DNA from: Antedon mediterranea
Lineage: Eukaryota; Animalia; Echinodermata
Direction: 5' to 3'
Length of the DNA: 64,000 bases
Assembly: GCF_964355755.1 (NCBI RefSeq)
Contig: NC_092672.1
Location: forward strand, 11,842,001 to 11,906,000
Below the pieces are notes generated by a model. That model saw only the letters and a program-made list of their open reading frames with translations, ran no database searches and was not told the DNA's origin. This document shows positions 31,680 through 61,680 of the stretch, piece after piece. Both the position numbers and the translations under genes were made by a program. Position 1 is the stretch's first letter, and each line of letters begins with the position of its first letter.

Positions 31680-33113
31680 ATGTTTTGCGATATTTGTACA
31701 TTAGTGTGCATCTGTACGTTCATAGATGTGACGCTTTCAGCAAGTTCAATATCAAAGAACCCGGATCATGATACAGTAACGGAAGGCGGAAAAGCTTACT
31801 TCGTTTGCGTAGTTGATAATTTATCTCAAGACGATTACGTCTCATGGATGCACAGTGACATTGAAGTCAGTAAACAAGATAGGATTGTTGAAAGTAAGCT
31901 TCAAAATAGATATTCTATACAAGTTGATAAAGACTATGGCAGTTTTAACCTTAAAATAACAGATGTGCAAAGAGAAGATGCTGGCCAGTATACTTGCACA
32001 ATTTACAATATGGAAAATAAAAAAGTTGTTGCGCAATCTCAACCAGCTAATTTAACTGTTAACCAAATTCCACAAAAATTGTATCCAATTTGCTCTCCTG
32101 TAGAACAATTCTACGTACCAGGAGGCATGGTAACACTAGCTTGTTCTTCGGAAATAACACAACCACCATCTGTTTTAAATTGGATCCAAAATGGTATCAG
32201 AATATCACCTAATCTGTACAAAAATGTGTTTGATCAAAAAATAATGAAAATAGCCTATTCGTTCAAAGCTGAGCGAATTTCAAATCGTGGAATGTTTACA
32301 TGTGAACTTACTTCCACAATTGATCCTACCTTTAGGAATAACTGCAGTATCGGGCCATTAAATATTCGCTACGTTCCTCAAGTCCGTATCGAGCACACAG
32401 GTGTTCTTAAAATTGGCCGCGAAGCAATATATATTTGCTACAGTGAAGCCAATCCTGATAAAGTGACATATATATGGAAAACTGAACCTCAATTAAGAAG
32501 AGACCAATATGAAATAGAAAATGACATAATATTTAGAATTTTATTGTTAACGGTAGATCTTAATGGTACACAGTTATTTTGTGAAGTGAATAATGAAGTA
32601 GGAATTGGAAGTAAAAGTTACAATATCATCTTTTCAAATGAACAATCAACTAAGGTTGGTAATTTAGAAAGTGACATTAACAAGGACATTCATAATAAAA
32701 ACGATGATAAAGTTGGAGAAAATGAAAAAATGCATAAGACGCAGAATGTTGAAGAGATAGAAATGGAAAATAGTTTTGATCTATCACTTATTGTTGTAAT
32801 AGCTGTTGTATGTATATTTGTTATTATTGGCCTAGCTATGATACCTGTTGGTTACATGAGATATACACAAAGACAACCCAGTGACACCATCGGTAGAGGA
32901 AGACCTGTGTCAATACCTGATGTATACTTTGAACCTAGAGATCACATAGATCCTATGCTACCACAGTTAGGCTTATCAGCTCCATGGATGAGGACAGTAG
33001 GAGTTCAAGTTCCTGGTGAATGTGAATATGATGTAACGTATAATACACAAGTTATGCCACAGTTACGACAGGTTTACTACTCACAAAGGGTGTACCCACC
33101 ATCCTCTCTGTAA
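31680..33113 (+). CDS. Array copy 1: 3-Ig type I membrane receptor (unique, most divergent ectodomain)
   Basis: 477 aa. Signal peptide, V-domain FVC..VSW..DAGQYTC, two further Ig domains, TM LIVVIAVVCIFVIIGLAMIPVGY, constant tail ending PPSSL. Confidence 0.93.
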   Translation: MFCDICTLVCICTFIDVTLSASSISKNPDHDTVTEGGKAYFVCVVDNLSQDDYVSWMHSDIEVSKQDRIVESKLQNRYSIQVDKDYGSFNLKITDVQREDAGQYTCTIYNMENKKVVAQSQPANLTVNQIPQKLYPICSPVEQFYVPGGMVTLACSSEITQPPSVLNWIQNGIRISPNLYKNVFDQKIMKIAYSFKAERISNRGMFTCELTSTIDPTFRNNCSIGPLNIRYVPQVRIEHTGVLKIGREAIYICYSEANPDKVTYIWKTEPQLRRDQYEIENDIIFRILLLTVDLNGTQLFCEVNNEVGIGSKSYNIIFSNEQSTKVGNLESDINKDIHNKNDDKVGENEKMHKTQNVEEIEMENSFDLSLIVVIAVVCIFVIIGLAMIPVGYMRYTQRQPSDTIGRGRPVSIPDVYFEPRDHIDPMLPQLGLSAPWMRTVGVQVPGECEYDVTYNTQVMPQLRQVYYSQRVYPPSSL

Positions 33114-33305
33114 TGCTTTTTTCATTTTTTTTAAACCAGTAACATAATTTAATATTTGAAATGGCACATACGAATAATACTTTAAATACACCAATCATAC
33201 TAAATCTACAGAAAATGTAGTATAATGAATTTGATTCGGATTCATTCTGGAAAATATATATTATTGTGAATCAAGATTTTACACAAGAGAAAAGCTGTAT
33301 TTGAG

Positions 33306-34796
33306 ATGATATTACATCCAACATTTTTGTTTATTGCATTTTTACTGCTCAACAAAACGTTTTCCTTTCCTGAATTTATAAAACAGCCAGAGGATGAAAG
33401 CCGAGCCGAAGGAGAACTTACGTATTTTAATTGTATGGTGAAAAATCTTGATGAAGGTGAATATGTTTCATGGCTTCATAATGGTCGGAAAATAAGTAGA
33501 AAAGATATAATTTCTGATACAAGTATATTTGATCGTTATTCAATAGAGTTTGATGACGTATTTAGCACTTATAATTTGCGAATTAAGAATATACAGAGGC
33601 GAGATGTAGGAATATACGCATGCGCAGTTTATGATGATTCTGACAATGTGGTTGCAGAGACTAAATCTTCTAACTTCACAGTACTTCAAATTCCTGAGAA
33701 ATATTACCCATTGTGCTCTAATATAAAAACAAGTTATAAACTTAACCAAAACATTGTTGTTGTATGTTCATCAGAAAAGACCTATCCTCTGCCTAGTTTA
33801 ATTTGGAAGCGAGACGGTATCAATATTGTATCACAATTGGAGGAGAAAACATCACGAGATATATACAAAGTTTCCTATTCAGTTAATGCAAAACAATCCG
33901 ACAACAGAGCTATATTTATATGTGAATTAACAACATCAGCAAACCCATCTATAAGAAGGAATTGTTCTGTTGGACCTATCAACGTTTTATATCCTCCGGT
34001 TGTTAGTATTAAACAGACAAGTGATATCGTTCTTGGCGACGAAGCCATCTTTATTTGTTATAGCGATGCAAATCCACAAGAGAATATTTTTCAATGGAGT
34101 TTTGACCCACCTATCAACAAAAACATGTATTTCTTAGAAAATGAATTCATTCTAAGAATTACAAATGTAGTAATCAGTTTAAATGATACAATTGTTACCT
34201 GCGAAGTAGAAAATTCTGTTGGAAGGAGCTATAGCAAATTAAACATCAATATAAAAAGAAAAACCTCATTTGATAGTAGCGTTAATGATAACGAGGGAAA
34301 TGGAAAAGGCGGATCAAAGAAAAATACAAATGGGTTTAAAACAGAAGGTACAGAGGACGACGGTGCGACGATAGGAAACAAAGAAAAATCAAAGAATCAA
34401 AATAGTAATCAAAATACAATACAGACAAGATCCCAAGACAAGAAAAACAGCACCGATGTATCAATATCATTAGTTATAACCATTGCAGTTGTATGTATTA
34501 TAGTAATTCTAGGATTGGCATTGATACCTGTTGGTTACATGAGATATACACGAAGACAACCTAGTGACACCATCAGTAGAGGAAGACCTGTGTCAATACC
34601 TGATGTATACTTTGAACCTAGAGATCACATAGATCCTATGCTACCACAGTTAGGCTTAGCAGCTCCTTGGATGAGGACAGTAGGAGTTCAAGTTCCTGGT
34701 GAATGTGAATATGATGTAACGTATAATACACAAGTTATGCCACAGTTACGACAGGTTTACTACTCACAAAGAATGTACCCGCCATCATCTTTGTAA
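33306..34796 (+). CDS. Array copy 2 (subfamily B, MILHPTF type)
   Basis: 496 aa intact ORF with the same domain layout and constant tail. Confidence 0.93.
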   Translation: MILHPTFLFIAFLLLNKTFSFPEFIKQPEDESRAEGELTYFNCMVKNLDEGEYVSWLHNGRKISRKDIISDTSIFDRYSIEFDDVFSTYNLRIKNIQRRDVGIYACAVYDDSDNVVAETKSSNFTVLQIPEKYYPLCSNIKTSYKLNQNIVVVCSSEKTYPLPSLIWKRDGINIVSQLEEKTSRDIYKVSYSVNAKQSDNRAIFICELTTSANPSIRRNCSVGPINVLYPPVVSIKQTSDIVLGDEAIFICYSDANPQENIFQWSFDPPINKNMYFLENEFILRITNVVISLNDTIVTCEVENSVGRSYSKLNINIKRKTSFDSSVNDNEGNGKGGSKKNTNGFKTEGTEDDGATIGNKEKSKNQNSNQNTIQTRSQDKKNSTDVSISLVITIAVVCIIVILGLALIPVGYMRYTRRQPSDTISRGRPVSIPDVYFEPRDHIDPMLPQLGLAAPWMRTVGVQVPGECEYDVTYNTQVMPQLRQVYYSQRMYPPSSL

Positions 34797-34985
34797 TGAT
34801 TTTTCCAATTTTCTAAAACCAGTAACACAATTTAATATTTGAAATGGCACATATGAATAATAGTTTAAATACACCAATCAAACTAAATCTACAGAAACGG
34901 TAACACAATGAAATTGTTTTGGATTCATTTTGGAAAATATACGTTGTGAATCAAGATAATACACACGAGAAAAGCTGTATTTGAG

Positions 34986-36476
34986 ATGATATTATATCCA
35001 ACGTTTTGGTTTATTGCATTGTTACTGCTCAACAAAACGTTTTCGTTTCCTGAATTTATAAAACAGCCAGAGGATGAAAGCCGAGCCGAAGGAAAATTTA
35101 CGTTTTTTATTTGTATGGTGACAAATCTTGGGGAAGGTGAATATGTTTCATGGCTGCATAGTGGTCGGAAAATAAGTAGAAATGATATAATTACTGATAC
35201 TAGGGTATTTGATCGTTATTCAGTAGATTTTGATCCAGTATTTAGTACTTACAATTTGCGAATTAAGAATATACAGAGGCAAGATGTAGGAATATACACA
35301 TGCGCAGTTTATGATGATTCTGGCGACATAGTGGCACAGAGTAAAGCTTCTAACTTTACAGTTCTTCAAATTCCTGAGAAATTTTACCCATTATGCTCTA
35401 ATATAAAAACAAGTTATACACTTAACAAAAAAATTGTTGTTGTATGTTCATCAGAAAAGACCTATCCTCTGCCTAGTTTAATTTGGAAGCGTGACGATAT
35501 CAATATTGTATCACCATTGGAGAAAGAATCATCACGAGATACATACAAAGTGTCCTATTCAGTTATTGCAAAACAATCCGACAACAGAGCTATATTTATA
35601 TGTGAATTAACAACATCAGCAAACCCATCTATAGGAAGGAATTGTTCTGTTGGACCTATCAACGTTTTATATCCTCCTGTTGTTCGTATTAAACAGACAA
35701 GTGATATCGTTCTTGGCGACGAAGCCATCTTTATTTGTTATAGCGATGCAAATCCACAAGAGAATATTTTTAGATGGAGATTTGACCCACCTATCAACAA
35801 AAACATGTATTTCTTAGAAAATGAATTCATTCTGAGAATTAGAAATGTAGTACTCAGTTTAAATGATACAATTGTTATCTGCGAAGTAAAAAATTCTGTT
35901 GGAAGTAGCTATAGCAAATTAAACATCAATATAAAAAGAAAAACCTTATTTGATAGTAGCGTTAATGAAAACGAGGGAAATGGAAAAGGTGGATCAAAGA
36001 AAAATACAAATGGGTTTAAAACAGAAGGTACAGAGGACGACGGTGCGACGATAGGAAACAAAGAAAAATCAAAGAATCAAAATAGTAATCAAGATACAAT
36101 ACACACAAGATCCCAAGACAAGGAAAACAGCACCGATGTATCAATATCATTAGTTATAACCATTGCAGTGGTATGTATTATAGTAATTCTAGGTTTGGCA
36201 CTGATACCTGTTGGTTACATGAGATATACACGAAGACAACCTAGTGACACCATCAATAGAGGAAGACCTGTGTCAATACCTGATGTATACTTTGAACCTA
36301 GAGATCACATAGATCCTATGCTACCACAGTTAGGCTTAGCAGCTCCATGGATGAGGACAGTAGGAGTTCAAGTTCCTGGTGAATGTGAATATGATGTAAC
36401 GTATAATACACAAGTTATGCCACAGTTACGACAAGTTTACTACTCACAAAGAATGTACCCACCATCATCTCTATAA
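34986..36476 (+). CDS. Array copy 3 (subfamily B, MILYPTF type)
   Basis: 496 aa intact ORF, collinear with copies 2, 4, 5. Confidence 0.93.
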   Translation: MILYPTFWFIALLLLNKTFSFPEFIKQPEDESRAEGKFTFFICMVTNLGEGEYVSWLHSGRKISRNDIITDTRVFDRYSVDFDPVFSTYNLRIKNIQRQDVGIYTCAVYDDSGDIVAQSKASNFTVLQIPEKFYPLCSNIKTSYTLNKKIVVVCSSEKTYPLPSLIWKRDDINIVSPLEKESSRDTYKVSYSVIAKQSDNRAIFICELTTSANPSIGRNCSVGPINVLYPPVVRIKQTSDIVLGDEAIFICYSDANPQENIFRWRFDPPINKNMYFLENEFILRIRNVVLSLNDTIVICEVKNSVGSSYSKLNINIKRKTLFDSSVNENEGNGKGGSKKNTNGFKTEGTEDDGATIGNKEKSKNQNSNQDTIHTRSQDKENSTDVSISLVITIAVVCIIVILGLALIPVGYMRYTRRQPSDTINRGRPVSIPDVYFEPRDHIDPMLPQLGLAAPWMRTVGVQVPGECEYDVTYNTQVMPQLRQVYYSQRMYPPSSL

Positions 36477-36666
36477 TGATTTTTCTAAATTTTCTAAAAC
36501 CAGTAACACAATTTAATATTTGAAATGGCACATATGAATAATAGTTTAAATACACCAATCATACTAAATCTGCAGAAACTGTAACACAATGAAATTGTTT
36601 CGGATTCATTCTGGAAAATATACATTGTGAATCAAGATATTACACAAAAGAAAAGCTGTATTTGAG

Positions 36667-38157
36667 ATGATATTACATCCAACATTTTTGTTTATTGCAT
36701 TGTTACTGCTCAACAAAACGTTTTCGTTTCCTGAATTTATAAAACAGCCAGAGGATGAAAGCCGAGCCGAAGGAGAACTTACGTTTTTTAATTGTATGGT
36801 GAAAAATCTTGGTGATGGTGAATATGTTTCATGGATGCAAAATGGTCGTAAAATAAGTAGTAATGATTTAATTGTTGATGTAAGTGTATTTGAGCGATAT
36901 TCAATAGAATTTAATGACGTGTTTAGTATTTACAATTTGCGAATTCAGAATATACAGAGGCGAGATGTAGGAATATACACATGCGCAGTTTATGATGATT
37001 CTGGCGACATAGTGGCACAGAGTAAAGCTTCTAATTTCACAGTACTTGAAATTCCTGAGAAATATTACCCATTATGCTCTAATATAAAAACAAGTTATAA
37101 ACTTAACCAAAACATTGTTGTTGTATGTTCATCAGAAAAAACCTATCCTCTGCCTAGTTTAATTTGGAAGCGAGACGATATCAATATTGTATCACAATTG
37201 GAGGAGGAAACATCACGAGATATATACAAAGTTTCCTATTCAGTTATTGCAAAACAATCCGACAACAGAGCTATATTTATATGTGAATTAACAACATCAG
37301 CAAACCCATCTATAAGAAGGAATTGTTCTGTTGGACCTATCAACGTTTTATATCCTCCTGTTGTTAGTATAAAACAGACAAGTGATATCGTTCTTGGCGA
37401 CGAAGCCATCTTTATTTGTTATAGCGATGCAAATCCACAAGCGAATATTTTTAAATGGAGTTTTGACCCACCTATCAACAAAAACATGTATTTCTTAGAA
37501 AATGAATTCATTCTAAGAATTACAAATGTAGTAATCAGTTTAAATGATACAATTGTTACCTGCGAAGTAGAAAATTCTGTTGGAAGGAGCTATAGTAAAT
37601 TAAACATCAATATAAAAAGAAAAACCTCATTTGATAGTAGCGTTAATGATAACGAGGGAAATGGAAAAGGCGGATCAAAGAAAAATACAAATGGGTTTAA
37701 AACAGAAGGTAAAGAGGACGACGGTGCGACGATAGGAAACAAAGAAAAATCAAAGAATCAAAATAGTAATCAAAATACAATACAGACAAGATCCCAAGAC
37801 AAGAAAAACAGCACCGATGTATCAATATCATTAGTTATAACCATTGCAGTTGTATGTATTATAGTAATTCTAGGGTTGGCATTGCTACCTGTTGGTTACA
37901 TGAGATATACACGTAGACAACCCAGCGACACTATCAGTAGAGGAAGACCTGTGTCAATACCTGATGTATACTTTGAACCTAGAGATCACATAGATCCTAT
38001 GCTACCACAGTTAGGCTTAGCAGTTCCATGGATGAGGACAGTAGGAGTTCAAGTTCCTGGTGAATGTGAATATGATGTAACATATAATACACACGTTATG
38101 CCACAGTTACGACAAGTTTACTACTCACAAAGAATGTACCCACCATCTTCTTTGTAA
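36667..38157 (+). CDS. Array copy 4 (subfamily B, MILHPTF type)
   Basis: 496 aa intact ORF, closest to copy 2. Confidence 0.93.
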   Translation: MILHPTFLFIALLLLNKTFSFPEFIKQPEDESRAEGELTFFNCMVKNLGDGEYVSWMQNGRKISSNDLIVDVSVFERYSIEFNDVFSIYNLRIQNIQRRDVGIYTCAVYDDSGDIVAQSKASNFTVLEIPEKYYPLCSNIKTSYKLNQNIVVVCSSEKTYPLPSLIWKRDDINIVSQLEEETSRDIYKVSYSVIAKQSDNRAIFICELTTSANPSIRRNCSVGPINVLYPPVVSIKQTSDIVLGDEAIFICYSDANPQANIFKWSFDPPINKNMYFLENEFILRITNVVISLNDTIVTCEVENSVGRSYSKLNINIKRKTSFDSSVNDNEGNGKGGSKKNTNGFKTEGKEDDGATIGNKEKSKNQNSNQNTIQTRSQDKKNSTDVSISLVITIAVVCIIVILGLALLPVGYMRYTRRQPSDTISRGRPVSIPDVYFEPRDHIDPMLPQLGLAVPWMRTVGVQVPGECEYDVTYNTHVMPQLRQVYYSQRMYPPSSL

Positions 38158-38347
38158 TGATTTTTCCAATTTTTCTAAAACCAGTAACACAATTTAATAT
38201 TTGAAATGGCACATATGAATAATAGTTTAAATACACCAATCAAACTGAATCTACAGAAACCGTAACACAATGAAATTGTTTTGGATTCATGTTGGAAAAT
38301 ATACGTTGTGAATCAAGATAATACACACAAGAAAAGCTGTTTTTGAG

Positions 38348-39838
38348 ATGATATTATATCCAACGTTTTGGTTTATTGCATTGTTACTGCTCAACAACAC
38401 GTTTTCATTTCCTGAATTTATAAAACAGCCAGAGGATGAAAGCCGAGCCGAAGGAAAATTTACGTATTTTAATTGTATGGTGACAAATCTTGGTGAAGAT
38501 GAATATGTTTCATGGCTGCATAGTGGTCGGAAAATAAGTACAAATCATTTAATTACTGATACAAGTTTAATAGATCGTTATTCAATATACTTTGATCCAG
38601 TATTTAGCACTTACAATTTGCAAATTAAAAATATACAGAGGCAAGATGTAGGAATATACGCATGCGCAGTTTATGATGATTCTGGCGACATAGTGGCAAA
38701 GAGTAAAGCTTCTAACTTTACAGTACTTGAAATTCCTGAGAAATATTACCCATTATGCTCAAATATAAAAACAAGTTATAAACTTAACCAAAATATTGTT
38801 GTTGTATGTTCATCAGAAAAGACCTATCCTCTGCCTAGTTTAATTTGGAAGCGTGACGATATCAATATTGTATCACCATTGGAAGAAGAAATATCAAAAA
38901 ATACATACAAAGTGTCTTATTCAGTTATTGCAAAAAAATCCGACAACGGAGCTATATTTATATGTGAATTAACAACATCAGCAAACCCATCTATAAGAAG
39001 GAATTGTTCTGTTGGACCTATCAACGTTTTATATCCTCCTGTTGTTCGTATTAAACAGACAAGTGATATTGTTCTTGGCGACGAAGCCATCTTTATTTGT
39101 TATAGCGATGCAAATCCACAAGAGAATATTTTTAAATGGAGTTTTGAACCACCTATCAACAAAAAGATGTATTTCTTAGAAAATAAATTCATTCTGAGAA
39201 TTAGAAATGTAGTACTCAGTTTAAATGATACAATTGTTACCTGCGAAGTAAATAATTCTGTTGGAAGTAGCTATAGTAAATTAAACATCAATATAATCAG
39301 AAAAACCTCATTTGATAGTAACGTTAATACCAACAAGGGAAATGGAAAAGGCGGATCAAACAAAGATACAAATGGGTTTAAAACAGAAGGTACAAAGGAC
39401 GATGGTGCGATGATAGGAAATAAAGAAAAATCAAAGAATCAAAATAGTAATCAAGATACAACACAGACACGATCCCAAGACAAGGAAAACAGCACCGATG
39501 TATCAATATCATTAGTTATAACCATTGCAGTGGTATGTATTATAGTAATTCTAGGGTTGGCATTGATACCTGTTGGTTACATGAGATACACACGAAGACA
39601 ATCTAGTGACACCATCAGTAGAGGAAGACCTGTGTCAATACCTGATGTATACTTTGAACCTAGAGATCATATAGATCCTATGCTACCACAGTTAGGCTTA
39701 GCAGCTCCATGGATGAGGACAGTAGGAGTTCAAGTTCCTGGTGAATGTGAATATGATGTAACATATAATACACAAGTGATGCCACAATCACGACATGTTT
39801 ACTATTCACAGCGTATGTATCCAACAGTGTCACTCTAA
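38348..39838 (+). CDS. Array copy 5 (subfamily B, MILYPTF type; C-terminus PTVSL)
   Basis: 496 aa intact ORF, closest to copy 3. Confidence 0.93.
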   Translation: MILYPTFWFIALLLLNNTFSFPEFIKQPEDESRAEGKFTYFNCMVTNLGEDEYVSWLHSGRKISTNHLITDTSLIDRYSIYFDPVFSTYNLQIKNIQRQDVGIYACAVYDDSGDIVAKSKASNFTVLEIPEKYYPLCSNIKTSYKLNQNIVVVCSSEKTYPLPSLIWKRDDINIVSPLEEEISKNTYKVSYSVIAKKSDNGAIFICELTTSANPSIRRNCSVGPINVLYPPVVRIKQTSDIVLGDEAIFICYSDANPQENIFKWSFEPPINKKMYFLENKFILRIRNVVLSLNDTIVTCEVNNSVGSSYSKLNINIIRKTSFDSNVNTNKGNGKGGSNKDTNGFKTEGTKDDGAMIGNKEKSKNQNSNQDTTQTRSQDKENSTDVSISLVITIAVVCIIVILGLALIPVGYMRYTRRQSSDTISRGRPVSIPDVYFEPRDHIDPMLPQLGLAAPWMRTVGVQVPGECEYDVTYNTQVMPQSRHVYYSQRMYPTVSL

Positions 39839-40068
39839 CTAGTCTAATCGTCAATGTAAAGTATTTATTTAAACTGGTAACATATAATTAAACCAGTTGT
39901 TCCATGTTACGGAAAAAAGGAAATTAGATCATAAGTAGAAAACTGAATCAATATGACAGATACAATGTAGACACTAAGATATCAGTCCATCCATGAGTTT
40001 TGACAAACTATTTCTTTGAATTAACAGTTGTTATGAACACCTTTATTTAAGCTTTATTATCCTTTAAA

Positions 40069-41520
40069 ATGAAGTTTCGAAGCTACATGTTGATTGTTAT
40101 TCCATTTTTGTACGAAGCATCTTCATTCACTGGATTCTTAAAACAGCCGTCAGACGAGAGCGTAGCTGAAGGTGAGCTGACATTTTTTAGTTGTATTGTA
40201 CAGAATCTTGATGGTGGTGAATACGTTTCCTGGTTGTATAATGCTCAGAAGATAAGCAAAAATGATATAATAACTAATAAAATGCTTACTACTCGCTACT
40301 CAATAGACTTTGATCCTGTATTTAAAAAATACAATTTGCAAATATATGACATCCATCGAAGCGATGAAGGACAATACACTTGTGCTGTTTATGATAAAAA
40401 TGAGATTATAGTAAAACAATCAAAAACAGCAAACTTTACCGTACTGCAAACTCCAGGACTAAATTATCCAATATGTACACTGAAAAAACAAACTTACATT
40501 GTTGGAGAAGCTGTTGTACTTGTCTGTATATCAGAAGTAACAAAGCCGTCAGCAACGTTATCATGGGTGAAATATGGTGACATTATTAAGGAAAAGGTTG
40601 TCAATGAAATGGTGAACGGAAATCATCAAACATCTTTTTCATTTACTGCAAGAAAGTCTGATAATAGAGCAATATTTATATGTGAATTGACAACACCAGC
40701 TAACCCATCGATTAGGCGAAATTGTTCAAGTGGGCCCTTCAACATTGTATACCCTCCTATAGTTCATATTCAACAAACAAGTGACGTCATTTTGGGCAAT
40801 GAAGGCATCTTTATTTGTTACAGTGATGCGAATCCACAGGAAACTACATTTGAATGGAGCTTTGATCCACCCATTGAAGAAAATATGTATTTGTTGGAAA
40901 GTGAAAGAATTTTAAGGATTGAAAATACAATAAGTAGTTTAAATGGGACAAGTGTCATATGTAAAGTTACTAATTCCATTGGAAGTGGATCTAGTAAATT
41001 AATATTGAAAATTAGAACGGAAGAAACTATTAATAATGTAGTTGAAACAAACAATGGAAAAGAAACCGACACGTCCGAAAAACCTCATGAAAGAAATAAG
41101 TCTAAGTCGAAGAATCAAAATTTAAACAACAATCAGCAGTTATTGCAGACTAACTCGCCAAACAACAACAGTACTGATGATATTTCAATTTCGTTGGTTG
41201 TCATAATTGCATTGGTATGCATTATAGTAATTCTAGGTTTGGCTATGATACCTGTTGGTTACATGAAATATACACGAAGACAACCCAGTGACACCATCAG
41301 TAGAGGAAGGCCTGTGTCATTACCTGATGTATATTTTGAACCTAGAGATCACATAGATCCTATGCTACCACAGTTAGGCTTAGCAGCTCCTTGGATGAAG
41401 ACAGTAGGAGTTCAAGTTCCTGGTGAATGTGAATATGATGTAACGTATAATACACAAGTTATGCCACAATTACGACAGGTGTACTATACACAACGGATGT
41501 ATCCTGCAGCTCCACTCTGA
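40069..41520 (+). CDS. Array copy 6 (singleton; C-terminus PAAPL)
   Basis: 483 aa intact ORF with the same Cys/Trp skeleton and tail. Confidence 0.93.
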   Translation: MKFRSYMLIVIPFLYEASSFTGFLKQPSDESVAEGELTFFSCIVQNLDGGEYVSWLYNAQKISKNDIITNKMLTTRYSIDFDPVFKKYNLQIYDIHRSDEGQYTCAVYDKNEIIVKQSKTANFTVLQTPGLNYPICTLKKQTYIVGEAVVLVCISEVTKPSATLSWVKYGDIIKEKVVNEMVNGNHQTSFSFTARKSDNRAIFICELTTPANPSIRRNCSSGPFNIVYPPIVHIQQTSDVILGNEGIFICYSDANPQETTFEWSFDPPIEENMYLLESERILRIENTISSLNGTSVICKVTNSIGSGSSKLILKIRTEETINNVVETNNGKETDTSEKPHERNKSKSKNQNLNNNQQLLQTNSPNNNSTDDISISLVVIIALVCIIVILGLAMIPVGYMKYTRRQPSDTISRGRPVSLPDVYFEPRDHIDPMLPQLGLAAPWMKTVGVQVPGECEYDVTYNTQVMPQLRQVYYTQRMYPAAPL

Positions 41521-45025: not shown

Positions 45026-45208
45026 TGATTGCTGTTCAGAACAAATAACACAACTTTTAAAATGATTTGCCATGTTGCAATACCATTGTAAATAGATCAT
45101 AAATATTCATATTTGTATATCGTGACCAATACACTGTATGCTGATATGTCTGACTTCTTTTCTCAAGTATGTTGTAACATTTGGATAATATAGATTGAAT
45201 ATGACATC

Positions 45209-51926: not shown

Positions 51927-53390
51927 ATGCTAGGTATTGGAACAACTGTTGGTACTTGGGTATTTTTTTACATGTTTATGTTGCAGAGAACTTATTCCTT
52001 CTCAGGATTCATAAAAGAGCCATTAGATGAGAATCAAGCCGAAGGTGATTTAACATATTTTACTTGTATTGTACGAGAACTTGATGAAACTCAATATATT
52101 TCTTGGTTACATAATGGACGCAAGATAAGTCAAAATGGCGAAATTATTATAAATACATACGCACATTATTCAATTGATTATAATTCAGTATTTGGTACAT
52201 GCACCTTAAGAATTCAAAACGTACAGCGGAGAGATAAAGGAGGATATACATGTACCGTTTATGATAGCAACGATCAAATTGTTGAGAAATCAAGGACAGC
52301 TAATTTTACAGTTTCAGAAATTCCTCAACAACAATATCCGATTTGTTCTTCAACTAAAAGGAGTTATCGCGTTGGCCAACACGTTGTTCTTAACTGTATT
52401 TCGGAAAAGACCACACCCCCAGCCTTGTTAAGATGGGTACATAATATTGGAGGTAGTGAATCAGGATTAAAAGAATCGTTAACTGGTAATTACGAAAACT
52501 CTTATTCATTTATTGCAAAACAATCTGACAATAGAGCAATATTTACATGTGAATTAACAACACCAGCAAATCCGTCATTATATAGTAATTGTACAATTGG
52601 TCCTCTTGATGTTTTATATGCTCCTACTGTTCGAATTGAACAAACACGTGACGTCATTCTTGGTAATGAAGCCATCTTTATTTGTTATAGTGATGCAAAT
52701 CCACAGGAATCTTCGTTTAAATGGAGCTTTGTTCCACCTCTTACTGAAAACATGTTTGTGTTGGAAAATGACATAATTTTGAGAATTAAAAATACAGTAA
52801 GTAGTTTAAATGGGACAAGTGTCATATGTGCAGTTACTAATTCGATTGGAAGTGGATCTAGTAAATTGATAATAAACGTAAAATCGAAAGAATCTACTAA
52901 TAATGTAGTTGAAACAAACAATGGAAAAGAAACGAAAAAGTTTGAAAAACCAAATGAAAGAAACAAAAATAAATCGAAAAATCAAAACTCTAACAGCAAT
53001 CAACCACTATTGCAGACTCGAACGCCAAACAACAACAACAGCAGTAATGATATTTCAATTTCTCTTGTTGTGATAATTGCATTGGTGTGTATCATAGTAA
53101 TTCTAGGATTGGCTATGATACCTGTTGGTTACATGAGATATACTCGTAGACAACCCAGTGACACCATCAGTAGAGGAAGACCTGTGTCAATACCTGATGT
53201 ATACTTTGAACCTAGAGATCACATAGATCCTATGCTACCACAGTTAGGCTTAGCAGCGCCATGGATGAGGACAGTAGGAGTTCAAGTTCCTGGTGAATGT
53301 GAATATGATGCCACATATAATACACAAGTTATGCCACAGGCACGACATGTATACTATACACAACGGATGTACCCGGCGTCTTCGTTGTAA
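51927..53390 (+). CDS. Array copy 13 (subfamily C)
   Basis: 487 aa intact ORF; N-terminus nearly identical to copy 12, stalk like copy 10. Confidence 0.93.
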   Translation: MLGIGTTVGTWVFFYMFMLQRTYSFSGFIKEPLDENQAEGDLTYFTCIVRELDETQYISWLHNGRKISQNGEIIINTYAHYSIDYNSVFGTCTLRIQNVQRRDKGGYTCTVYDSNDQIVEKSRTANFTVSEIPQQQYPICSSTKRSYRVGQHVVLNCISEKTTPPALLRWVHNIGGSESGLKESLTGNYENSYSFIAKQSDNRAIFTCELTTPANPSLYSNCTIGPLDVLYAPTVRIEQTRDVILGNEAIFICYSDANPQESSFKWSFVPPLTENMFVLENDIILRIKNTVSSLNGTSVICAVTNSIGSGSSKLIINVKSKESTNNVVETNNGKETKKFEKPNERNKNKSKNQNSNSNQPLLQTRTPNNNNSSNDISISLVVIIALVCIIVILGLAMIPVGYMRYTRRQPSDTISRGRPVSIPDVYFEPRDHIDPMLPQLGLAAPWMRTVGVQVPGECEYDATYNTQVMPQARHVYYTQRMYPASSL

Positions 53391-53602: not shown

Positions 53603-55072
53603 ATGTACACCTTAGGTATTGGAAACACTTTTGGCACTTGGATATTTTTATATATGTTGATGTTGCAGAGAACTTATTCCTTCTCAGGATTCATAAAAGA
53701 GCCACTAGATGAGAATAAAGCTGAGGGTGATTTGACATATTTTACTTGTATTGTACGAGAAATTGATGAAACTCAATATGTTTCTTGGTTACACAATGGA
53801 CGCAAGATAAGTAAAAATGGCGAAATTATCATCAATACATACGCACATTATTCAATTGATTATGATTCAACATTTTTTGTTAAATGTAACTTACAAATTC
53901 AAAATATAAAACGAAGCGATAAAGGGGAATATGTATGTACAGTTTACGATAGCAACGATCGGATTGTGGACAAATCAAGGACAGCTAATTTTACAGTTTT
54001 AGAAATTCCTCAACAACAATATCCGATTTGTTCTTCGACTAAAACGAGTTATCATGTTGGCCAGAATGTTGTTCTTAACTGTATTTCGGAAAACACCAAT
54101 CCTCTACCTATTCTTACATGGACACAAAATATTGTTGGAGGCATTGAATTAGGATTAAAAGAATCGTTAACTGGTAATTATGAAAAGTCTTATTCATTTA
54201 TTGCAAAACAATCTGACAACAGAGCAATATTTACATGTGAATTAACAACATCAGCAAATCCGTCTATAGAAAGGAATTGTACAATTGGTCCTCTTGATGT
54301 TTTATATCCCCCTATTGTTCGTATCCAACAAACACGTGATGTCATTATTGGTAATGAAGCCATCTTTATTTGTTATAGTGATGCAAATCCTCAAGAAACT
54401 ACGTTTGAATGGAACTTTGATCCACCTATTAGTGAAAATATGTTTGTGTTGGAAAATGATATAATTTTGAGAATTAAAAATACTGTAAGTAGTTTAAATG
54501 GGACAAGTGTCATATGTAAAGTTACTAATTCCATTGGAAGTGGATCTAGTAAATTGATAGTGAACGTAAAATCTAAAGAATCTATTAATAATGTAGTTGA
54601 AACGAACAATGGAAAAGAAACGAACAAGCCTGAAAAACCAAATCAAGGAAACAAAAATAAATCGAACAATCAAAATTCTAACAGCAATCAACAACTATTG
54701 AAGACTAGATCGCCAAACAACAGCAGTACAGATATTTCAATTTCGTTGGTTGTGATAATTGCATTAGTGTGTATCATAGTAATTCTAGGATTGGCTATGA
54801 TACCTGTTGGTTACATGAAATATACACGTAGACAACCCAGTGACACCATCAGTAGAGGAAGACCTGTGTCAATACCTGATGTATACTTTGAACCTAGAGA
54901 TCACATAGATCCTATGCTACCACAGTTAGGCTTAGCAGCTCCATGGATGAGGACAGTAGGAGTTCAAGTTCCTGGTGAATGTGAATATGATGTCACATAT
55001 AATACACAAGTTATGCCACAGTTACGACAGGTATACTATACACAACGGATGTACCCAGCTTCTTCGTTGTAA
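53603..55072 (+). CDS. Array copy 14 (subfamily C)
   Basis: The ORF track starts at an upstream ATG 53504. The homologous start (MYTLGIG, gacatcATG) is 53603. Confidence 0.88.
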   Translation: MYTLGIGNTFGTWIFLYMLMLQRTYSFSGFIKEPLDENKAEGDLTYFTCIVREIDETQYVSWLHNGRKISKNGEIIINTYAHYSIDYDSTFFVKCNLQIQNIKRSDKGEYVCTVYDSNDRIVDKSRTANFTVLEIPQQQYPICSSTKTSYHVGQNVVLNCISENTNPLPILTWTQNIVGGIELGLKESLTGNYEKSYSFIAKQSDNRAIFTCELTTSANPSIERNCTIGPLDVLYPPIVRIQQTRDVIIGNEAIFICYSDANPQETTFEWNFDPPISENMFVLENDIILRIKNTVSSLNGTSVICKVTNSIGSGSSKLIVNVKSKESINNVVETNNGKETNKPEKPNQGNKNKSNNQNSNSNQQLLKTRSPNNSSTDISISLVVIIALVCIIVILGLAMIPVGYMKYTRRQPSDTISRGRPVSIPDVYFEPRDHIDPMLPQLGLAAPWMRTVGVQVPGECEYDVTYNTQVMPQLRQVYYTQRMYPASSL

Positions 55073-55260: not shown

Positions 55261-56715
55261 ATGTACGTTTTAGGAATTGGAAAGTCTTTTGGAATATGGG
55301 TAGTTTTGTATTTATTGATGTTTCAGAGAACACATTCTTTATCTGGATTCAATACAGAGCCTGGGGATGAAAATCAGGCAGAAGGTGATTTAACCTATTT
55401 TACTTGTATTGTACGAGGACTCGATGACACTCACTATGTTTCTTGGTTGCATAATGGACGCAAGATTAGTAAAAATTATGACATTATATCAGATATCAAT
55501 AGATATTCAATCGAGTTTGATTCAAATTCTAGAAAATACAACTTTGAAATTGAGAATACTCAAAGGCAAGATAAAGGAGAATACGTATGCGCTGTTTATG
55601 ATAGCAGTGACAGAATTGTGGTCAAATCTAGAACAGCTAATTTAACAGTTTCAGAAATTCCACAAGAACCTTACCCTATTTGTCATAACGCTAAGCTAAG
55701 CTATTCCGCTGGACAAAGTGTGCTTCTTTCATGTATATCTGAAAAGACATCTCCTCTTGCTCATTTAAAATGGAAACAAAATAATTTGGATGTTACGACA
55801 GGATTAAGTGAAGACACATCTAGTGGTAATTATAAAGTATCGTATTCATTTACTGCAAGAAAATCCCATAATAGAGCAATATTTATATGTGAATTAACAA
55901 CATCCGTTAACCCAACTATTAGAAGGAATTGTTCTATTGGACCTATCAACGTTTTATATGCCCCTGTTGTTCGAATTGAGCAAACAAGTGACGTCATACT
56001 TGGTACTGAAGCCATCTTCATTTGTTATAGTGATGCAAATCCACAAGAAACTACATATCAATGGAGTTTTGATCCACCTATAGACGAAACTATGTATTAT
56101 TTAGAAAATGAATTTATTTTGAGAATTAAAAAAACAGTAAATAGTTTAAATGGCATACAAGTTATCTGCAAAGTAACGAATTCTATTGGAAGTGAGTCAG
56201 ACAAATTAATAATCAAAATAAAGACGAGAGGAGACATAACAAATAATGAAGATGAAGAATATGACAAAACGGTTGATGAAAATAAAGATATATCTGATAA
56301 CAATAAGGTAAATAAAAATCAACAATTGTTGCAAACAAGATCACCAACTATAAATAACAGTCATAGTAATTCAGATATTTCAATATCTCAAGTTGTCATC
56401 ATTGCAGTGGTATGTATTATATTAATTCTAGGTTTGGCAATGATACCTGTTGGTTACATTAAATATACACGACGACAACCCAGTGACACCATCAGTAGAG
56501 GAAGACCTGTGTCAATACCTGATGTATACTTTGAACCTAGAGATCACATAGATCCTATGCTACCGCAGTTAGGCTTAGCAGCTCCATGGATGAGGACAGT
56601 AGGAGTTCAAGTTCCTGGTGAATGTGAATATGATGCCACATATAATACACAAGTGATGCCACAATCACGACAGGTGTACTATACACAACGGATGTACCCG
56701 GCATCTTCGTTGTAA
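55261..56715 (+). CDS. Array copy 15 (subfamily D, MYVLGIG type)
   Basis: 484 aa intact ORF; acidic stalk; SQVV at the TM start. Confidence 0.93.
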   Translation: MYVLGIGKSFGIWVVLYLLMFQRTHSLSGFNTEPGDENQAEGDLTYFTCIVRGLDDTHYVSWLHNGRKISKNYDIISDINRYSIEFDSNSRKYNFEIENTQRQDKGEYVCAVYDSSDRIVVKSRTANLTVSEIPQEPYPICHNAKLSYSAGQSVLLSCISEKTSPLAHLKWKQNNLDVTTGLSEDTSSGNYKVSYSFTARKSHNRAIFICELTTSVNPTIRRNCSIGPINVLYAPVVRIEQTSDVILGTEAIFICYSDANPQETTYQWSFDPPIDETMYYLENEFILRIKKTVNSLNGIQVICKVTNSIGSESDKLIIKIKTRGDITNNEDEEYDKTVDENKDISDNNKVNKNQQLLQTRSPTINNSHSNSDISISQVVIIAVVCIILILGLAMIPVGYIKYTRRQPSDTISRGRPVSIPDVYFEPRDHIDPMLPQLGLAAPWMRTVGVQVPGECEYDATYNTQVMPQSRQVYYTQRMYPASSL

Positions 56716-56903: not shown

Positions 56904-58358
56904 ATGTACGTTTTGGGAATTGGAAAGTCTTTTGGAACATGGATAGTCTTGTATTTATTGATGTTTCAGGAAACACATACTTTATCTGGATTTAATACAG
57001 AGCCCGGGGATGTAAATCAAGCAGAAGGTGATTTGACCTATTTCAACTGTATCGTGCGAGGACTTGATGACACTCACTATGTTTCTTGGTTGCATAATGG
57101 ACGCAAGATTAGTAAAAATTATGACATTATATCAGATAACAATCGATATGCAATCGAGTTTGATTCTAATTCTAGAAAATACAACTTTGAAATTGAGAAT
57201 ACTCAAAGAAAAGATAAAGGAGAATACGTATGCGCTGTTTATGATAGCAGTGACAACATTGTGGTCAAATCTAGAACAGCTAATTTAACAGTTTTAGAAA
57301 TTCCTCAAGAAAATTATCCTATTTGTCATAACGCTAAGCAAAGCTATTCCGCTGGACAAAGTGTGCTTCTTTCATGTATATCTGAAAAGACATCTCCTCT
57401 TGCTCATTTAAAATGGAAACACAATAGTATTGATGTTACGACAGGATTAAGTGAAGACACATCTAGTGGTAATTACAAAGTATCGTATTCATTTATTGCA
57501 AGACAATCCAATAATAGAGCAGTATTTATATGTGAATTAACAACATCCGTTAACCCAACTATAAGAAGGAATTGTTCTATTGGACCTATCAATGTTTTAT
57601 ATGCTCCTGTTGTTCGTATTGAACAAACGAGTGACGTCATACTTGGTAATGAAGCCATCTTTATTTGCTATAGTGATGCAAATCCACAAGAAGCTACGTA
57701 TCAATGGAGTTTTGATCCACCTATAGACGAAACTATGTATTATTTAGAAAATGAATTTATTATGAGAATTAAAAAAACAACAAATAGTTTAAATGGTATA
57801 CAAGTTATCTGCAAAGTAACGAATTCTATTGGAAGTGAGTCAAACAAATTAATAATCAAAGTAAAGACGAGAGGAGTCATAGCAGACAATGAAGATGTAG
57901 ATTATGACAAAGCAATCGATGAAAATAAAGATATATCTGATAGCAAAAAGGTAAATAAAAATCAACAAATGTTGCAAACAAAATCACCAACTATAAACAA
58001 CAGTAATACGGATTCAGATATTTCAATATCTCTAGTTGTCATAATTGCATTAGTATGTATTATAGTAATTCTAGGGTTGGCATTGATACCTGTTGGTTAC
58101 ATGAGATATACACGGAGACAACCTAATGACACCATAAGTAGAGGAAGACCTGTGTCAATACCTGATGTATACTTTGAACCTAGAGATCACATAGATCCTA
58201 TGTTACCACAGTTAGGCTTAGCAGCTCCATGGATGAGGACAGTAGGAGTTCAAGTTCCTGGTGAATGTGAATATGATGCCACATATAATACACAAGTTAT
58301 GCCACAGCCACGACATGTATACTATACACAACGGATGTACCCAGCTTCATCGTTGTAA
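56904..58358 (+). CDS. Array copy 16 (subfamily D)
   Basis: 484 aa intact ORF. Confidence 0.93.
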   Translation: MYVLGIGKSFGTWIVLYLLMFQETHTLSGFNTEPGDVNQAEGDLTYFNCIVRGLDDTHYVSWLHNGRKISKNYDIISDNNRYAIEFDSNSRKYNFEIENTQRKDKGEYVCAVYDSSDNIVVKSRTANLTVLEIPQENYPICHNAKQSYSAGQSVLLSCISEKTSPLAHLKWKHNSIDVTTGLSEDTSSGNYKVSYSFIARQSNNRAVFICELTTSVNPTIRRNCSIGPINVLYAPVVRIEQTSDVILGNEAIFICYSDANPQEATYQWSFDPPIDETMYYLENEFIMRIKKTTNSLNGIQVICKVTNSIGSESNKLIIKVKTRGVIADNEDVDYDKAIDENKDISDSKKVNKNQQMLQTKSPTINNSNTDSDISISLVVIIALVCIIVILGLALIPVGYMRYTRRQPNDTISRGRPVSIPDVYFEPRDHIDPMLPQLGLAAPWMRTVGVQVPGECEYDATYNTQVMPQPRHVYYTQRMYPASSL

Positions 58359-58564: not shown

Positions 58565-60022
58565 ATGTACGTTTTAGGCATTGGAAAGTCTTTTGGAACA
58601 TGGGTAGTTTTGTATTTTCTGATGTTTCAAAGAACATATTCTTTATCTGGATTCATTAAAGAGCCTGCGGATGAAAATCAAGCAGAAGGTGATTTAACCT
58701 ATTTTACTTGCATTGTACGTGGACTCGATGAAACTCAATATGTTTCTTGGTTGCATAATGGACGCAAGATTAGTAACAACTATGACATTTTATCAGATAC
58801 TAATCGATATTCAATCGATATTGATTCAAATTCTAGAAAATATAACTTTGAAATTGAGAATACACAAAGGCAAGATAAAGGAGAATACGTATGCGCTGTT
58901 TATGATAGCAGGGACAGCATTGTGGTCAAATCTAGAACAGCTAATTTAACAGTTTTAGAAATTCCTCAAGAACCTTACCCTCTTTGTCATAACGCTAAGC
59001 TAAGCTATTCCGCTGGACAAAGTGTGCTTCTTTCATGTATATCTGAAAAGACATCTCCTCTTGCCCATTTAAAATGGAAACAAAATGATATTGATGTTAC
59101 CACAGGATTAAGTGAAGACACATCTAGTGGTAATTACAAAGTATCGTATTCATTTATTGCAAGACAATCTAATAATAGAGCAGTATTTATATGTGAATTA
59201 ACAACATCCGTAAACCCAACTATAAGAAGGAATTGTTCTATTGGACCTATCAATGTTTTATATGTTCCTGTTGTTCGTATTGAACAAACGAGTGACGTCA
59301 TACTTGGTACTGAAGCCATCTTCATTTGCTATAGTGATGCAAATCCACAAGAAGCTACGTATCAATGGAGTTTTGATCCACCTATAGACGAAACTATGTA
59401 TTATTTAGAAAATGAGTTTATTTTGAGAATTAAAAGAACAGTAAATAGTTTAAATGGTATACATGTTATCTGCAAAGTAACGAATTCTATTGGAAGTGAG
59501 TCGAACAAATTAATAATCAAAGTAAAAACGAGAGGAGACATAGCAGACAATGAAGATGTAGATTATGACAAAACGGTTGATGAAAATAAAGATATATCTG
59601 ATAACAAAAAGGTAAACAAAAATCAACAATTGCTGCAAACACGATCACCAACTATAAATAACAGTCATAATAATTCAGATATTTCAATATCTCAAGTTGT
59701 CATCATTGCAGTGGTATGTATTATAGTAATTCTAGGATTGGCATTGATACCTGTTGGTTACATTAAATACACACGACGACAACCCAGTGACACCATCAGT
59801 AGAGGAAGACCTGTGTCAATACCTGATGTATACTTTGAACCTAGAGATCATATAGATCCTATGTTACCACAGATAGGCTTAGCAGCTCCATGGATGAGGA
59901 CAGTAGGAGTTCAAGTTCCTGGTGAATGTGAATATGATGCCACATATAATACACAAGTTATGCCACAGCCACGACAGGTATACTATACACAACGGATGTA
60001 CCCAGCTTCTTCGTTGCAATGA
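58565..60022 (+). CDS. Array copy 17 (subfamily D; C-terminus SSLQ)
   Basis: 485 aa intact ORF; TAA-to-CAA change followed by TGA. Confidence 0.93.
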   Translation: MYVLGIGKSFGTWVVLYFLMFQRTYSLSGFIKEPADENQAEGDLTYFTCIVRGLDETQYVSWLHNGRKISNNYDILSDTNRYSIDIDSNSRKYNFEIENTQRQDKGEYVCAVYDSRDSIVVKSRTANLTVLEIPQEPYPLCHNAKLSYSAGQSVLLSCISEKTSPLAHLKWKQNDIDVTTGLSEDTSSGNYKVSYSFIARQSNNRAVFICELTTSVNPTIRRNCSIGPINVLYVPVVRIEQTSDVILGTEAIFICYSDANPQEATYQWSFDPPIDETMYYLENEFILRIKRTVNSLNGIHVICKVTNSIGSESNKLIIKVKTRGDIADNEDVDYDKTVDENKDISDNKKVNKNQQLLQTRSPTINNSHNNSDISISQVVIIAVVCIIVILGLALIPVGYIKYTRRQPSDTISRGRPVSIPDVYFEPRDHIDPMLPQIGLAAPWMRTVGVQVPGECEYDATYNTQVMPQPRQVYYTQRMYPASSLQ

Positions 60023-60225
60023 TTGCTGTTTCAGAACTAATAACACAACATTTAAACTGATTTGCCATACCTTCTTAATACAATCATTAATATTCATAGT
60101 ATGTTTATGCATATGCAAAACTTATCAGGTATACTGTATTGCGAACTATACACTGTATGTTGCTCGACTTCTGTTTTACGAATATGGCGTAAGGTTTCCA
60201 TAATATACTTTTAAACAATGACATT

Positions 60226-61680
60226 ATGTACGTTTTAGGCATTGGAATGCCTTTTGGAACATGGGTAGTTTTGTATTTGTTGATGTTTCAGAGAATATGT
60301 TCCTTATCCGGATTCATTAAGGAGCCTGCGGATGAAAATCAAGCAGAAGGTGATTTGACATATTTCAACTGTATTGTAAGAGGACTCGATGAAACTCACT
60401 ATGTTTCTTGGTTGCATAATGGACGCAAGATTAGTAAAAATTATGACATTATATCAGATAACAATCGATATTCAATCGAGTTTGATTCTAATTCTAGAAA
60501 ATACAACTTTGAAATTGAGAATACTCAAAGGCAAGATAAAGGAGAATACGTATGCGCAGTTTATGATAGCAGTGACAGCATTGTGGTCAAATCTAGAACA
60601 GCTAATTTAACAGTTTCAGAAATTCCTCAAGAACCTTACCCTCTTTGTCATAACGCTAAGCTAAGCTATTCCGCTGGACAAAGTGTGCTTCTTTCATGTA
60701 TATCTGAAAAGACATCTCCTCTTGCTCATTTAAAATGGAGACACAGTAATATTGATGTTACGACAGGATTAAGTGAAGACACATCTAGTGGTAATTACAA
60801 AGTATCGTATTCATTTATTGCAAGACAATCCAATAATAGAGCAATATTTATATGTGAATTAACAACATCCGTTAACCCAATTATAAGAAGGAATTGTTCT
60901 ATTGGACCTATCAATGTTTTATATGCGCCTGTTGTTCGTATTGAACAAACGAGTGACGTCATACTTGGTAATGAAGCCATCTTCATTTGTTATAGTGATG
61001 CAAATCCAAAAGAAGCTACATATCAATGGAGTTTTGATCCACCCATAGACGAAACTATGTATTATTTAGAAAATGAATTTATTTTGAGAATTAAAAACAC
61101 AGTAAATAGTTTAAATGGTATACAAGTTATCTGCAAAGTAACGAATTCTATTGGAAGTGAGTCAAACAAATTAATAATCAAAGTAAAAACGAGAGGAGAT
61201 ATGCCAGACAATGAAGATGTAGAATATGACAAAACATTCGAAGAAAATATAGATATATCTGATAGTAAAATGGTAAATAAAAATCAGCAATTGCTGCGAA
61301 CAAGATCACCAACTATAAACAACAGTAATACGAATTCAGATATTTCAATATCTCTAGTTGTCATCATTGCAGTTGTATGTATTATAGTAATTCTAGGTTT
61401 GGCATTGATACCTGTTGGTTACATGAGATATACACGTAGACAACCCAGTGACATCATCAATAGAGGAAGACCTGTGTCAATACCTGATGTATACTTTGAA
61501 CCTAGAGATCACATAGATCCTATGCTACCACAGTTAGGCTTAGCAGCTCCATGGATGAGGACAGTAGGAGTTCAAGTTCCTGGTGAATGTGAATATGATG
61601 TAACGTATAATACACAAGTTATGCCACAGTTACGACAGGTTTACTACTCACAAAGAATGTACCCAGCAGCTTCACTGTAG
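60226..61680 (+). CDS. Array copy 18 (subfamily D ectodomain, copy 1-4-type tail end; last unit)
   Basis: 484 aa intact ORF ending PAASL-TAG. No further unit is visible up to 64000. Confidence 0.93.
   Translation: MYVLGIGMPFGTWVVLYLLMFQRICSLSGFIKEPADENQAEGDLTYFNCIVRGLDETHYVSWLHNGRKISKNYDIISDNNRYSIEFDSNSRKYNFEIENTQRQDKGEYVCAVYDSSDSIVVKSRTANLTVSEIPQEPYPLCHNAKLSYSAGQSVLLSCISEKTSPLAHLKWRHSNIDVTTGLSEDTSSGNYKVSYSFIARQSNNRAIFICELTTSVNPIIRRNCSIGPINVLYAPVVRIEQTSDVILGNEAIFICYSDANPKEATYQWSFDPPIDETMYYLENEFILRIKNTVNSLNGIQVICKVTNSIGSESNKLIIKVKTRGDMPDNEDVEYDKTFEENIDISDSKMVNKNQQLLRTRSPTINNSNTNSDISISLVVIIAVVCIIVILGLALIPVGYMRYTRRQPSDIINRGRPVSIPDVYFEPRDHIDPMLPQLGLAAPWMRTVGVQVPGECEYDVTYNTQVMPQLRQVYYSQRMYPAASL

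Follow-up and report, generated by a model that had tools for sequence, protein, structure and literature searches.

A tandem array of single-ORF receptor genes

The stretch analysed here is a window of 64,000 nucleotides from contig NC_092672.1 of Antedon mediterranea, and it carries a tandem array of genes for immunoglobulin (Ig)-domain transmembrane (TM) receptors. Between positions 28000 and 64000 we found exactly 18 open reading frames (ORFs) of at least 150 amino acids, all of them on the plus strand, within 31680–61680 and 477–522 amino acids long (Table 1). Each array gene is a single ORF that runs from signal peptide to stop, although the untranslated regions (UTRs) may contain introns. 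For copy 14 the likely start is the in-frame ATG at 53603, which matches its paralogs, rather than another in-frame ATG upstream of it at 53504. All genes are co-oriented, and the 17 spacers between them measure 183–332 bp (113–332 bp if copy 14 starts at 53504). A tblastn search of the window recovered the 18 array genes and one distant paralog, and no broken fragments. These results bear out an earlier, sequence-only reading of the stretch, which had described 18 consecutive intact ORFs with no pseudogene among them; it had also seen no transposon inside the array, and the spacers are indeed too short for an ordinary one.

Table 1. Positions of the array genes and of other features, counted from the first letter of the window (aa, amino acids). 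The TAACA motif is the one past the stop of the gene in that row.
Feature	Positions	Strand	Start of PDVYFEP codons	Start of TAACA motif	Description
Copy 1	31680..33113	+	32916	33140	477 aa; its ectodomain diverges most (overall identity with other copies 44-47%)
Copy 2	33306..34796	+	34599	34823	Subfamily A, 496 aa
Copy 3	34986..36476	+	36279	36504	Subfamily A, 496 aa
Copy 4	36667..38157	+	37960	38185	Subfamily A, 496 aa
Copy 5	38348..39838	+	39641	39878	Subfamily A, 496 aa
Copy 6	40069..41520	+	41323	41553	Singleton, 483 aa
Copy 7	41763..43214	+	43017	43236	Singleton, 483 aa
Copy 8	43547..45025	+	44828	45046	Subfamily C, 492 aa
Copy 9	45209..46675	+	46475	46693	Subfamily C, 488 aa; reference copy
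Copy 10	46886..48358	+	48161	48380	Subfamily C, 490 aa
Copy 11	48568..50037	+	49840	50059	Subfamily C, 489 aa
Copy 12	50251..51708	+	51511	51730	Subfamily C, 485 aa
Copy 13	51927..53390	+	53193	53412	Subfamily C, 487 aa
Copy 14	53603..55072	+	54875	55094	Subfamily C, 489 aa (522 aa from ATG 53504)
Copy 15	55261..56715	+	56518	56737	Subfamily D, 484 aa
Copy 16	56904..58358	+	58161	58380	Subfamily D, 484 aa
Copy 17	58565..60022	+	59822	60041	Subfamily D, 485 aa
Copy 18	60226..61680	+	61483		Subfamily D ectodomain, 484 aa
Tail core, copy 1	32886..33035	+			Homogenised 150 bp
Tail core, copy 9	46445..46594	+			Codes for PDVYFEPRD and the LC8-like WMRTVGVQVP
Tail core, copy 18	61453..61602	+			
Spacer motif TAACA[CT]A[AT]	33140..33147	+			First of 17; 18-40 nt past each internal stop
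First AATAAA past the array	61966..61971	+			Candidate poly(A) signal of copy 18 or common 3' end
Distant paralog	3914..5317	+			Single ORF, 467 aa, ~31% identity; lies 26 kb upstream of the array, has the same tail motifs, not part of the homogenised set
LINE-like fragment	25773..26246	-			157-aa open stretch; no Pfam match at E 0.01
MITE-like element	30805..31310				79-bp terminal inverted repeats, 94% complementary; ends ~370 bp before the first ATG

An assembly artefact, which the same reading had named as a way in which it could fail, is not evident. The copies differ from one another (44–93% overall identity), and contigs of all four public runs compared (from two studies) cover 29–30 of the 30 bins of 31000–50999, the region compared. 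The junctions between copies 5 and 6 and between copies 6 and 7 are bridged by contigs (among the 32 of 1065 pieces listed); the three runs with junction-bridging contigs come from one sample, possibly the assembly's own source. In one run (X1), which may be of RNA, the contigs span ORFs and spacers from 31607 on, and 31000–31606 is covered by the other three; contigs cannot show transcripts, transcript ends or levels, and we did not use this start as evidence of expression or read-through. A contig of run X1 also ends in a CAATT repeat at 39840, just past the copy 5 stop, that is absent from the window and may be an allele or an artefact.

The encoded proteins share one layout: a signal peptide, a V-type, a C2-type and a third Ig domain, a low-complexity stalk, a TM helix and a tail of about 85 residues. 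In copy 9 the signal spans residues 1–26, Ig1 27–132, Ig2 133–233, Ig3 234–321, the stalk 322–374 and the TM helix about 378–405, with the tail running to 488. Matches to the Pfam families V-set, C2-set_2 and Ig_3/I-set were found in all four of the proteins scanned (four of the 18 copies). A structure model of copy 9 shows three Ig domains and one TM helix, the tail being modelled at low confidence, with a predicted local distance difference test score of 85–95 over most of the Ig part and a predicted template modelling score of 0.52; both the model and the Pfam matches agree with the common layout described in the sequence-only reading. When we searched structures with this model, the best match was Necl-4 (E = 1e-18, TM-score 0.75 on target), followed by DIP-eta and nectin-1, at about 20% sequence identity. 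By predicted fold, the array proteins are thus nectin/Necl-like surface receptors, and by analogy with nectins they are likely to be adhesion or recognition receptors that bind through Ig1.

Identity among the copies averages 60% in Ig1 (34–93%) and 92% in the tail (85–99%). The ectodomains form three tight subfamilies (copies 2–5, 8–14 and 15–18, with 77–93% overall identity within them) and the singletons 1, 6 and 7, that is, about six lineages and not 18. Diverse ectodomains on a near-identical tail had already been pointed out; the ranges agree with this, although the number of ectodomain lineages is only about a third of the number of genes. Ectodomain diversity in the array is real but moderate.

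Homogenisation of the tails

Between lineages, the synonymous difference (pS) drops from 0.53 in the Ig domains to 0.19 in the tail, and the tail is lower in 120 of 120 pairs; for copies 1 and 2 the values are 0.65 and 0.09. Over codons 401–470, pS falls to 0.08–0.13. Since silent sites are homogenised too, protein constraint alone is insufficient to account for the constant tail. The homogenised block is a 150-bp core that extends from −30 to +120 of the PDVYFEP codon in every copy, and the nearest four cores of each copy are 95–99% identical in DNA. The cores of copies 1 and 18, at opposite ends of the array, share an identical run of 112 nt, whereas the ectodomains of these copies share at most 13 nt; the tail end of copy 18 is nearest to those of copies 1–4, not to its neighbours.

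Trees that included proteins of Anneissia japonica, the source of the closest outside relatives, gave different groupings for the two parts of the receptors. In the ectodomain tree, Antedon and Anneissia copies interleave, with copy 1 outside all Anneissia array proteins and the Anneissia proteins P0009 and P0010 sister to copies 2–18 (support 94/92). In the tree of TM helix and tail, all 18 copies form one group (99/99), with 10 near-fixed differences from Anneissia. A clade of window ectodomains alone was rejected by an approximately unbiased (AU) test that used 13 of the 28 rows and was made once the tree had been seen (p = 0.02). For Anneissia, homogenisation by species was judged from proteins. 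Thus the tail pattern is stronger than the earlier reading could see, being homogenised both at synonymous sites and by species.

We also tracked similarity along the repeat unit. The tail end and the spacer follow the Ig1 of the next gene (rho 0.75 and 0.71) over that of their own gene (0.53 and 0.58), whereas the stalk and TM helix follow their own Ig1 (rho 0.71) over that of the next gene (0.48). Because similarity shifts from the own to the next gene across the core, we infer that the duplicated unit begins and ends inside the core. Neither core nor spacer has RNA structure beyond that of shuffled sequences (core z of +0.9 to +1.8 in the seven of 18 copies tested), and there was no Rfam match. 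These patterns suggest that gene conversion and unequal crossing-over through the core likely keep the tails near-identical.

The second tail motif, [RK]TVGVQVP, is present in 18 of 18 copies and lies in the low-confidence, disorder-type tail of the copy 9 model. Published rules for binding to the dimerising hub protein LC8 (DYNLL) place Q at position 0, hydrophobic residues at −1 and +1, P, D or E at +2 and a hydrogen-bonding residue at −4 (PMC6607443). Resembling the tail motif among the binders in its supplement are DLGAP1 (QSVGVQVE) and ATMIN (ISTGVQVN). RTVGVQVP fits this consensus, and LC8 binding is accordingly a prediction from the motif. A sequence search of the PDB with the tail gave no match below E 0.3.

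Our preferred explanation, which we hold to be fairly probable, is that the array sets diverged ectodomains on near-identical tails by conversion and unequal crossing-over through an in-frame core, and so would feed one intracellular output. A crossover inside the core would be in frame and would add or remove whole units (tail end, spacer, ectodomain and TM helix) while the genes stay intact; this would be why every copy is intact and pseudogenes are lacking. The approximately six ectodomain lineages would likely differ in the partner that Ig1 binds on a neighbouring cell, as in nectins and Necls, and the common tail is predicted to bind LC8 through RTVGVQVP and to signal through conserved tyrosines. 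The array is likely to serve the animal's own cells, either in adhering to one another or in recognising each other's identity. Such a locus would keep a variable-receptor, constant-signal system without splicing, since recombination in the core would both multiply intact receptors and equalise their outputs, and it offers 18 cloneable single-ORF candidates with a predicted link to LC8. To our knowledge, how echinoderms achieve cell-identity recognition or self-avoidance is an open question.

Several observations weigh against this explanation. Ig1 identity inside the subfamilies is 67–93%, so specificities may be shared. When pooled, the ratio of replacement to synonymous substitution (dN/dS) stays under 1 for all domains and subfamilies, at 0.2–0.8 in the Ig domains with highest values of 0.79–0.81; the only ratio above 1, a within-subfamily value of 2.0, comes from six codons in the BC loop of Ig1. 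The bootstrap of the tail tree is not fully settled, and on the short tail alignment the AU test did not reject an ectodomain-like grouping (p = 0.28). LC8 motifs are short, and many peptides that bear the anchor do not bind (PMC6607443). Lastly, selection at the nucleotide level, for example on a promoter for the next gene within the core, may be another cause of the low silent divergence.

It is conceivable, though in our view unlikely, that the copies are largely redundant and set the dose of one adhesion receptor, with ectodomains drifting under relaxed selection and the constant tail a by-product of recombination. The dN/dS values of the Ig domains, with no pooled excess of replacements, and the three tight subfamilies are consistent with redundancy, and recombination alone can yield a constant tail. 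However, all 18 copies are intact, lineages 34–62% apart in Ig1 persist, and copy 1 is apparently older than the split from Anneissia. Moreover, conversion halts at the TM helix and does not extend into the ectodomain, as expected if selection keeps the ectodomain differences.

Spacers and possible shared transcription of the array

The very short spacers and a motif conserved in them hint at shared transcription, a point that the earlier reading did not raise. The motif TAACA[CT]A[AT] follows each of the 17 internal stops and is absent from the 250 nt past the copy 18 stop. TAACA is the sole 5-mer common to six lineage-representative spacers, and any shared 5-mer arose in 13 of 2000 shuffles, the motif having been found post hoc. 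Neither AATAAA nor ATTAAA occurs in 14 of the 17 spacers, and one or the other is found in three of the six lineages. The shortage of AATAAA has P = 0.004 over the 17 spacers but P = 0.21 over the six lineage spacers (1 seen, 2.8 expected), and we downgraded it for this reason.

We consider the chances about even that the array is one transcription unit, transcribed either into a single polycistronic RNA some 30 kb long or into nested RNAs that start at promoters near each tail and share one 3' end, with promoter choice or processing picking the ORF to be translated. Pointing to such a unit are the length of all 17 spacers, which have taken up no insertions, the presence of TAACA within 60 nt of the stop in every spacer and not after copy 18, the 14 spacers without either hexamer, and the first AATAAA past copy 18. 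The loss of significance per lineage argues against it, as do the 28 occurrences of AATAAA inside the array ORFs, which make this hexamer a weak marker. The spacers contain 1–7 upstream ATGs each, against simple reinitiation, and good splice acceptors are found in only some of them. TAACA could, moreover, belong to a promoter element or to a poly(A) signal of non-canonical type. A single transcription unit concerns regulation and is compatible with recombination through the core as the source of the constant tails. If the spacers are read through, the array would add a large locus of polycistronic or nested-promoter type to a group of animals from which few such loci are reported.

An extended form of this idea, which we regard as improbable, is that the array is a cell-identity code organised as a 30-kb read-through locus. 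The tail core would then be both a recombination hot spot, at which whole receptors are added and shuffled, and part of the control region of the next gene, and one or few of the 18 ORFs would be translated per cell through promoter choice or processing at the TAACA element. If true, a deuterostome would have evolved independently, with Ig domains and no constant exon, a counterpart to the self-recognition of protocadherins and Dscam.

Other features of the spacers are recorded here as observations. In copies 9–18, a conserved out-of-frame ATG 8 nt before the start opens an ORF of 4–16 codons that overlaps the true start (10 of 10). The longest spacer, spacer 7 (43215–43546), looks composite: it contains two TAACA motifs and in its second part is similar to the beginning of spacer 6. 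Upstream of the array, a pyrimidine-rich stretch at about 31385–31410 ends in TTGCAG about 270 nt before the copy 1 ATG and is a candidate acceptor for splicing from a non-coding exon further upstream.

Relatives, comparable systems and flanks

Among outside relatives, seven proteins of Anneissia japonica come closest, at 50–57% identity; they are encoded on one 2.07-Mb scaffold, have near-consecutive accessions and so probably represent a matching cluster; the NCBI name of close Anneissia relatives is 'cell adhesion molecule 2-like'. Further relatives were found in Antedon mediterranea itself, Anneissia, Holothuria and Diadema. The tails share the motifs P[DE][VI]YFEPxD and WxR[STN][VI]G[VI]QVP, both of which are present in 46 of 53 motif-bearing relatives (a set that includes the window copies and one redundant cluster). 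Echinoderm KirrelL, Kirrel2L, Hypp1164 and IgTM resemble the array proteins in having three Ig domains, a TM helix and the same YPxC...RxC pattern around Ig2, and kirrelL is likewise intronless (PMC8903837). However, that paper deals with KirrelL as one gene in each species, compared with 18 genes here. KirrelL is further marked by skeletogenic expression and a role in cell fusion. Identity with KirrelL was rejected, as the ectodomain of Anneissia KirrelL matches at 28% across 254 residues and the two fall into separate clades in a 29-row quick tree. A motif search over the shown part of the long lines of the KirrelL supplement (PMC8903837) gave no match. Of the KirrelL proteins compared directly, Anneissia KirrelL (P0140) and a sea-cucumber-type KirrelL (P0131) have no YFEP- or GVQV-type motif and fall outside the tail-motif clade (Shimodaira–Hasegawa-like approximate likelihood ratio 99, quick tree). 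As judged from these comparisons, the array is the most recent expansion within a branch, itself expanded in crinoids, of an echinoderm V-C2-Ig family, a cousin of KirrelL and not KirrelL itself. The family, which the sequence-only reading did not recognise, is thereby placed, and it is known to databases by automatic names only.

At least nine more distant members (P0017, P0024–P0026, P0029, P0030, P0032, P0039 and P0122), which probably lie on the window's own contig, suggest a larger chromosomal cluster. Three proteins of 1513–3688 amino acids (P0019–P0021) have the same ectodomain type without the tail motifs; we rejected the idea that they are fused gene models of similar arrays, as they are multi-Ig repeat proteins with near-identical tandem Ig2–Ig3 pairs. 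Another distant relative, P0026, is labelled 'LRIG2' by NCBI and has no leucine-rich repeat by Pfam, and the wider family may be described under that name. An LRIG2-named gene, which may or may not belong to the array's family, is mentioned in a sea cucumber coelomocyte cluster (PMC11244903). Among the literature matches listed, titles and the beginnings of abstracts, most subscription journals and bioRxiv supplements lying outside, held no description of the array or of echinoderm polycistronic Ig genes. Reports of polycistronic tandem gene families (Lrig2, LITAF) in echinoderms could bear on novelty.

The relatives also bear on whether the array could be a family of innate immune receptors on coelomocytes, with Ig ectodomains for microbial or viral ligands and signalling through tyrosine motifs, which we consider doubtful. 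An acidic Yxx[IVL] follows the second motif in 31 of 33 distant relatives (9 of the 33 being added members of two clusters), and VTYTQV, which resembles an immunoreceptor tyrosine-based inhibitory motif (ITIM), occurs in four of the seven Anneissia array proteins. An immune role would also suit the expansion by birth and death, which has left many distant paralogs on this contig, and the frequent use of nectin-type folds as receptors by viruses (the structural matches include nectin-1 in complex with herpesvirus gD). In contrast, an inserted N breaks the ITIM spacing in 18 of 18 window copies, and there is no pooled positive selection. The inserted N is an example of homogenisation changing the output of the whole array at once.

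The self/non-self recognition proposed in the sequence-only reading is unsupported, given pooled dN/dS below 1, about six lineages and little difference in a second sample. Comparison of haplotypes, suggested there as a check, was possible for eight listed pieces of that one sample, in which 30 of 3788 bases differ (0.8%) at a 93% threshold that would hide very divergent alleles; this limited test gave no sign of polymorphism of the allorecognition type. We regard a polymorphic allorecognition locus like Hydractinia Alr or Botryllus FuHC as very improbable. Alr and FuHC are likewise clustered or three-Ig TM receptors with tyrosine motifs in the tail, which the clustered three-Ig genes with a common tail resemble. 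Among feature-level Atlas matches, the highest score (0.95) went to a chordate cluster under the name 'Histocompatibility ligand transmembrane form', and clusters of nectin-3 and CADM4 scored the same. This match came without an alignment, and no sequence alignment to Alr or FuHC was obtained. Among 40 of 185 differences, listed by support and possibly including cross-mapping between paralogs, Ig1 has 10 replacement and 3 silent changes. However, the extreme allelic polymorphism that is the hallmark of Alr and FuHC was not seen in the pieces compared, the diversity is seen between paralogs and not shown between alleles, and feather stars are solitary, which we count against an allorecognition locus.

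The closest likeness in organisation is to the clustered protocadherins, in which large single coding exons also stand in tandem, each of them encoding an ectodomain, a TM segment and a cytoplasmic segment, and which undergo regional gene conversion while N-terminal domains stay diverse (PMC1852091). The sequence-only reading had taken a constant region in each unit for a different route to the same end; this is not new, since the protocadherin-beta cluster likewise does without shared constant exons, and published work describes regional gene conversion in protocadherin clusters (PMC1852091). The likeness covers layout and evolution. The array has Ig domains and not six cadherin domains, so the likeness is convergent and the array is not a member. 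Its homogenised block is the cytoplasmic tail, which contains the apparent duplication breakpoint, whereas protocadherins homogenise membrane-proximal parts (PMC1852091). Spacers differ as well. They are about 200 bp in the array, whereas protocadherin spacers measure kilobases, with one promoter per exon. Clustered protocadherins are further marked by stochastic promoter choice and isoform-specific homophilic binding. Chelicerate sDscam genes splice tandem variable Ig cassettes to shared constant exons, whereas each array unit encodes a whole protein and ends in a stop. Nectins, CADMs and Necls share the V-C2-Ig fold, as the copy 9 model and Necl-4 do, but at about 20% identity and with an apparently unrelated tail, afadin/PDZ and 4.1-binding motifs not being recognisable in that of the array. 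Vertebrate nectin genes have introns and are dispersed.

The left flank had been described as full of transposable elements, which is borne out in part. A miniature inverted-repeat transposable element (MITE)-like element and small dispersed repeats are indeed present, while the fragment that resembles a long interspersed nuclear element (LINE) has no Pfam match to back it. The distant paralog in this flank has a possible splice acceptor near 3550, which suggests an intron in its 5' UTR. Other features of the flank are a perfect 76-bp palindrome at 1933–2008, a 95-bp inverted repeat (98%) at 10603–10818, an 18-bp minisatellite at 27462–27620 and, at 23163, 27753 and 13749, a small family of dispersed repeats that contain CCGA runs.

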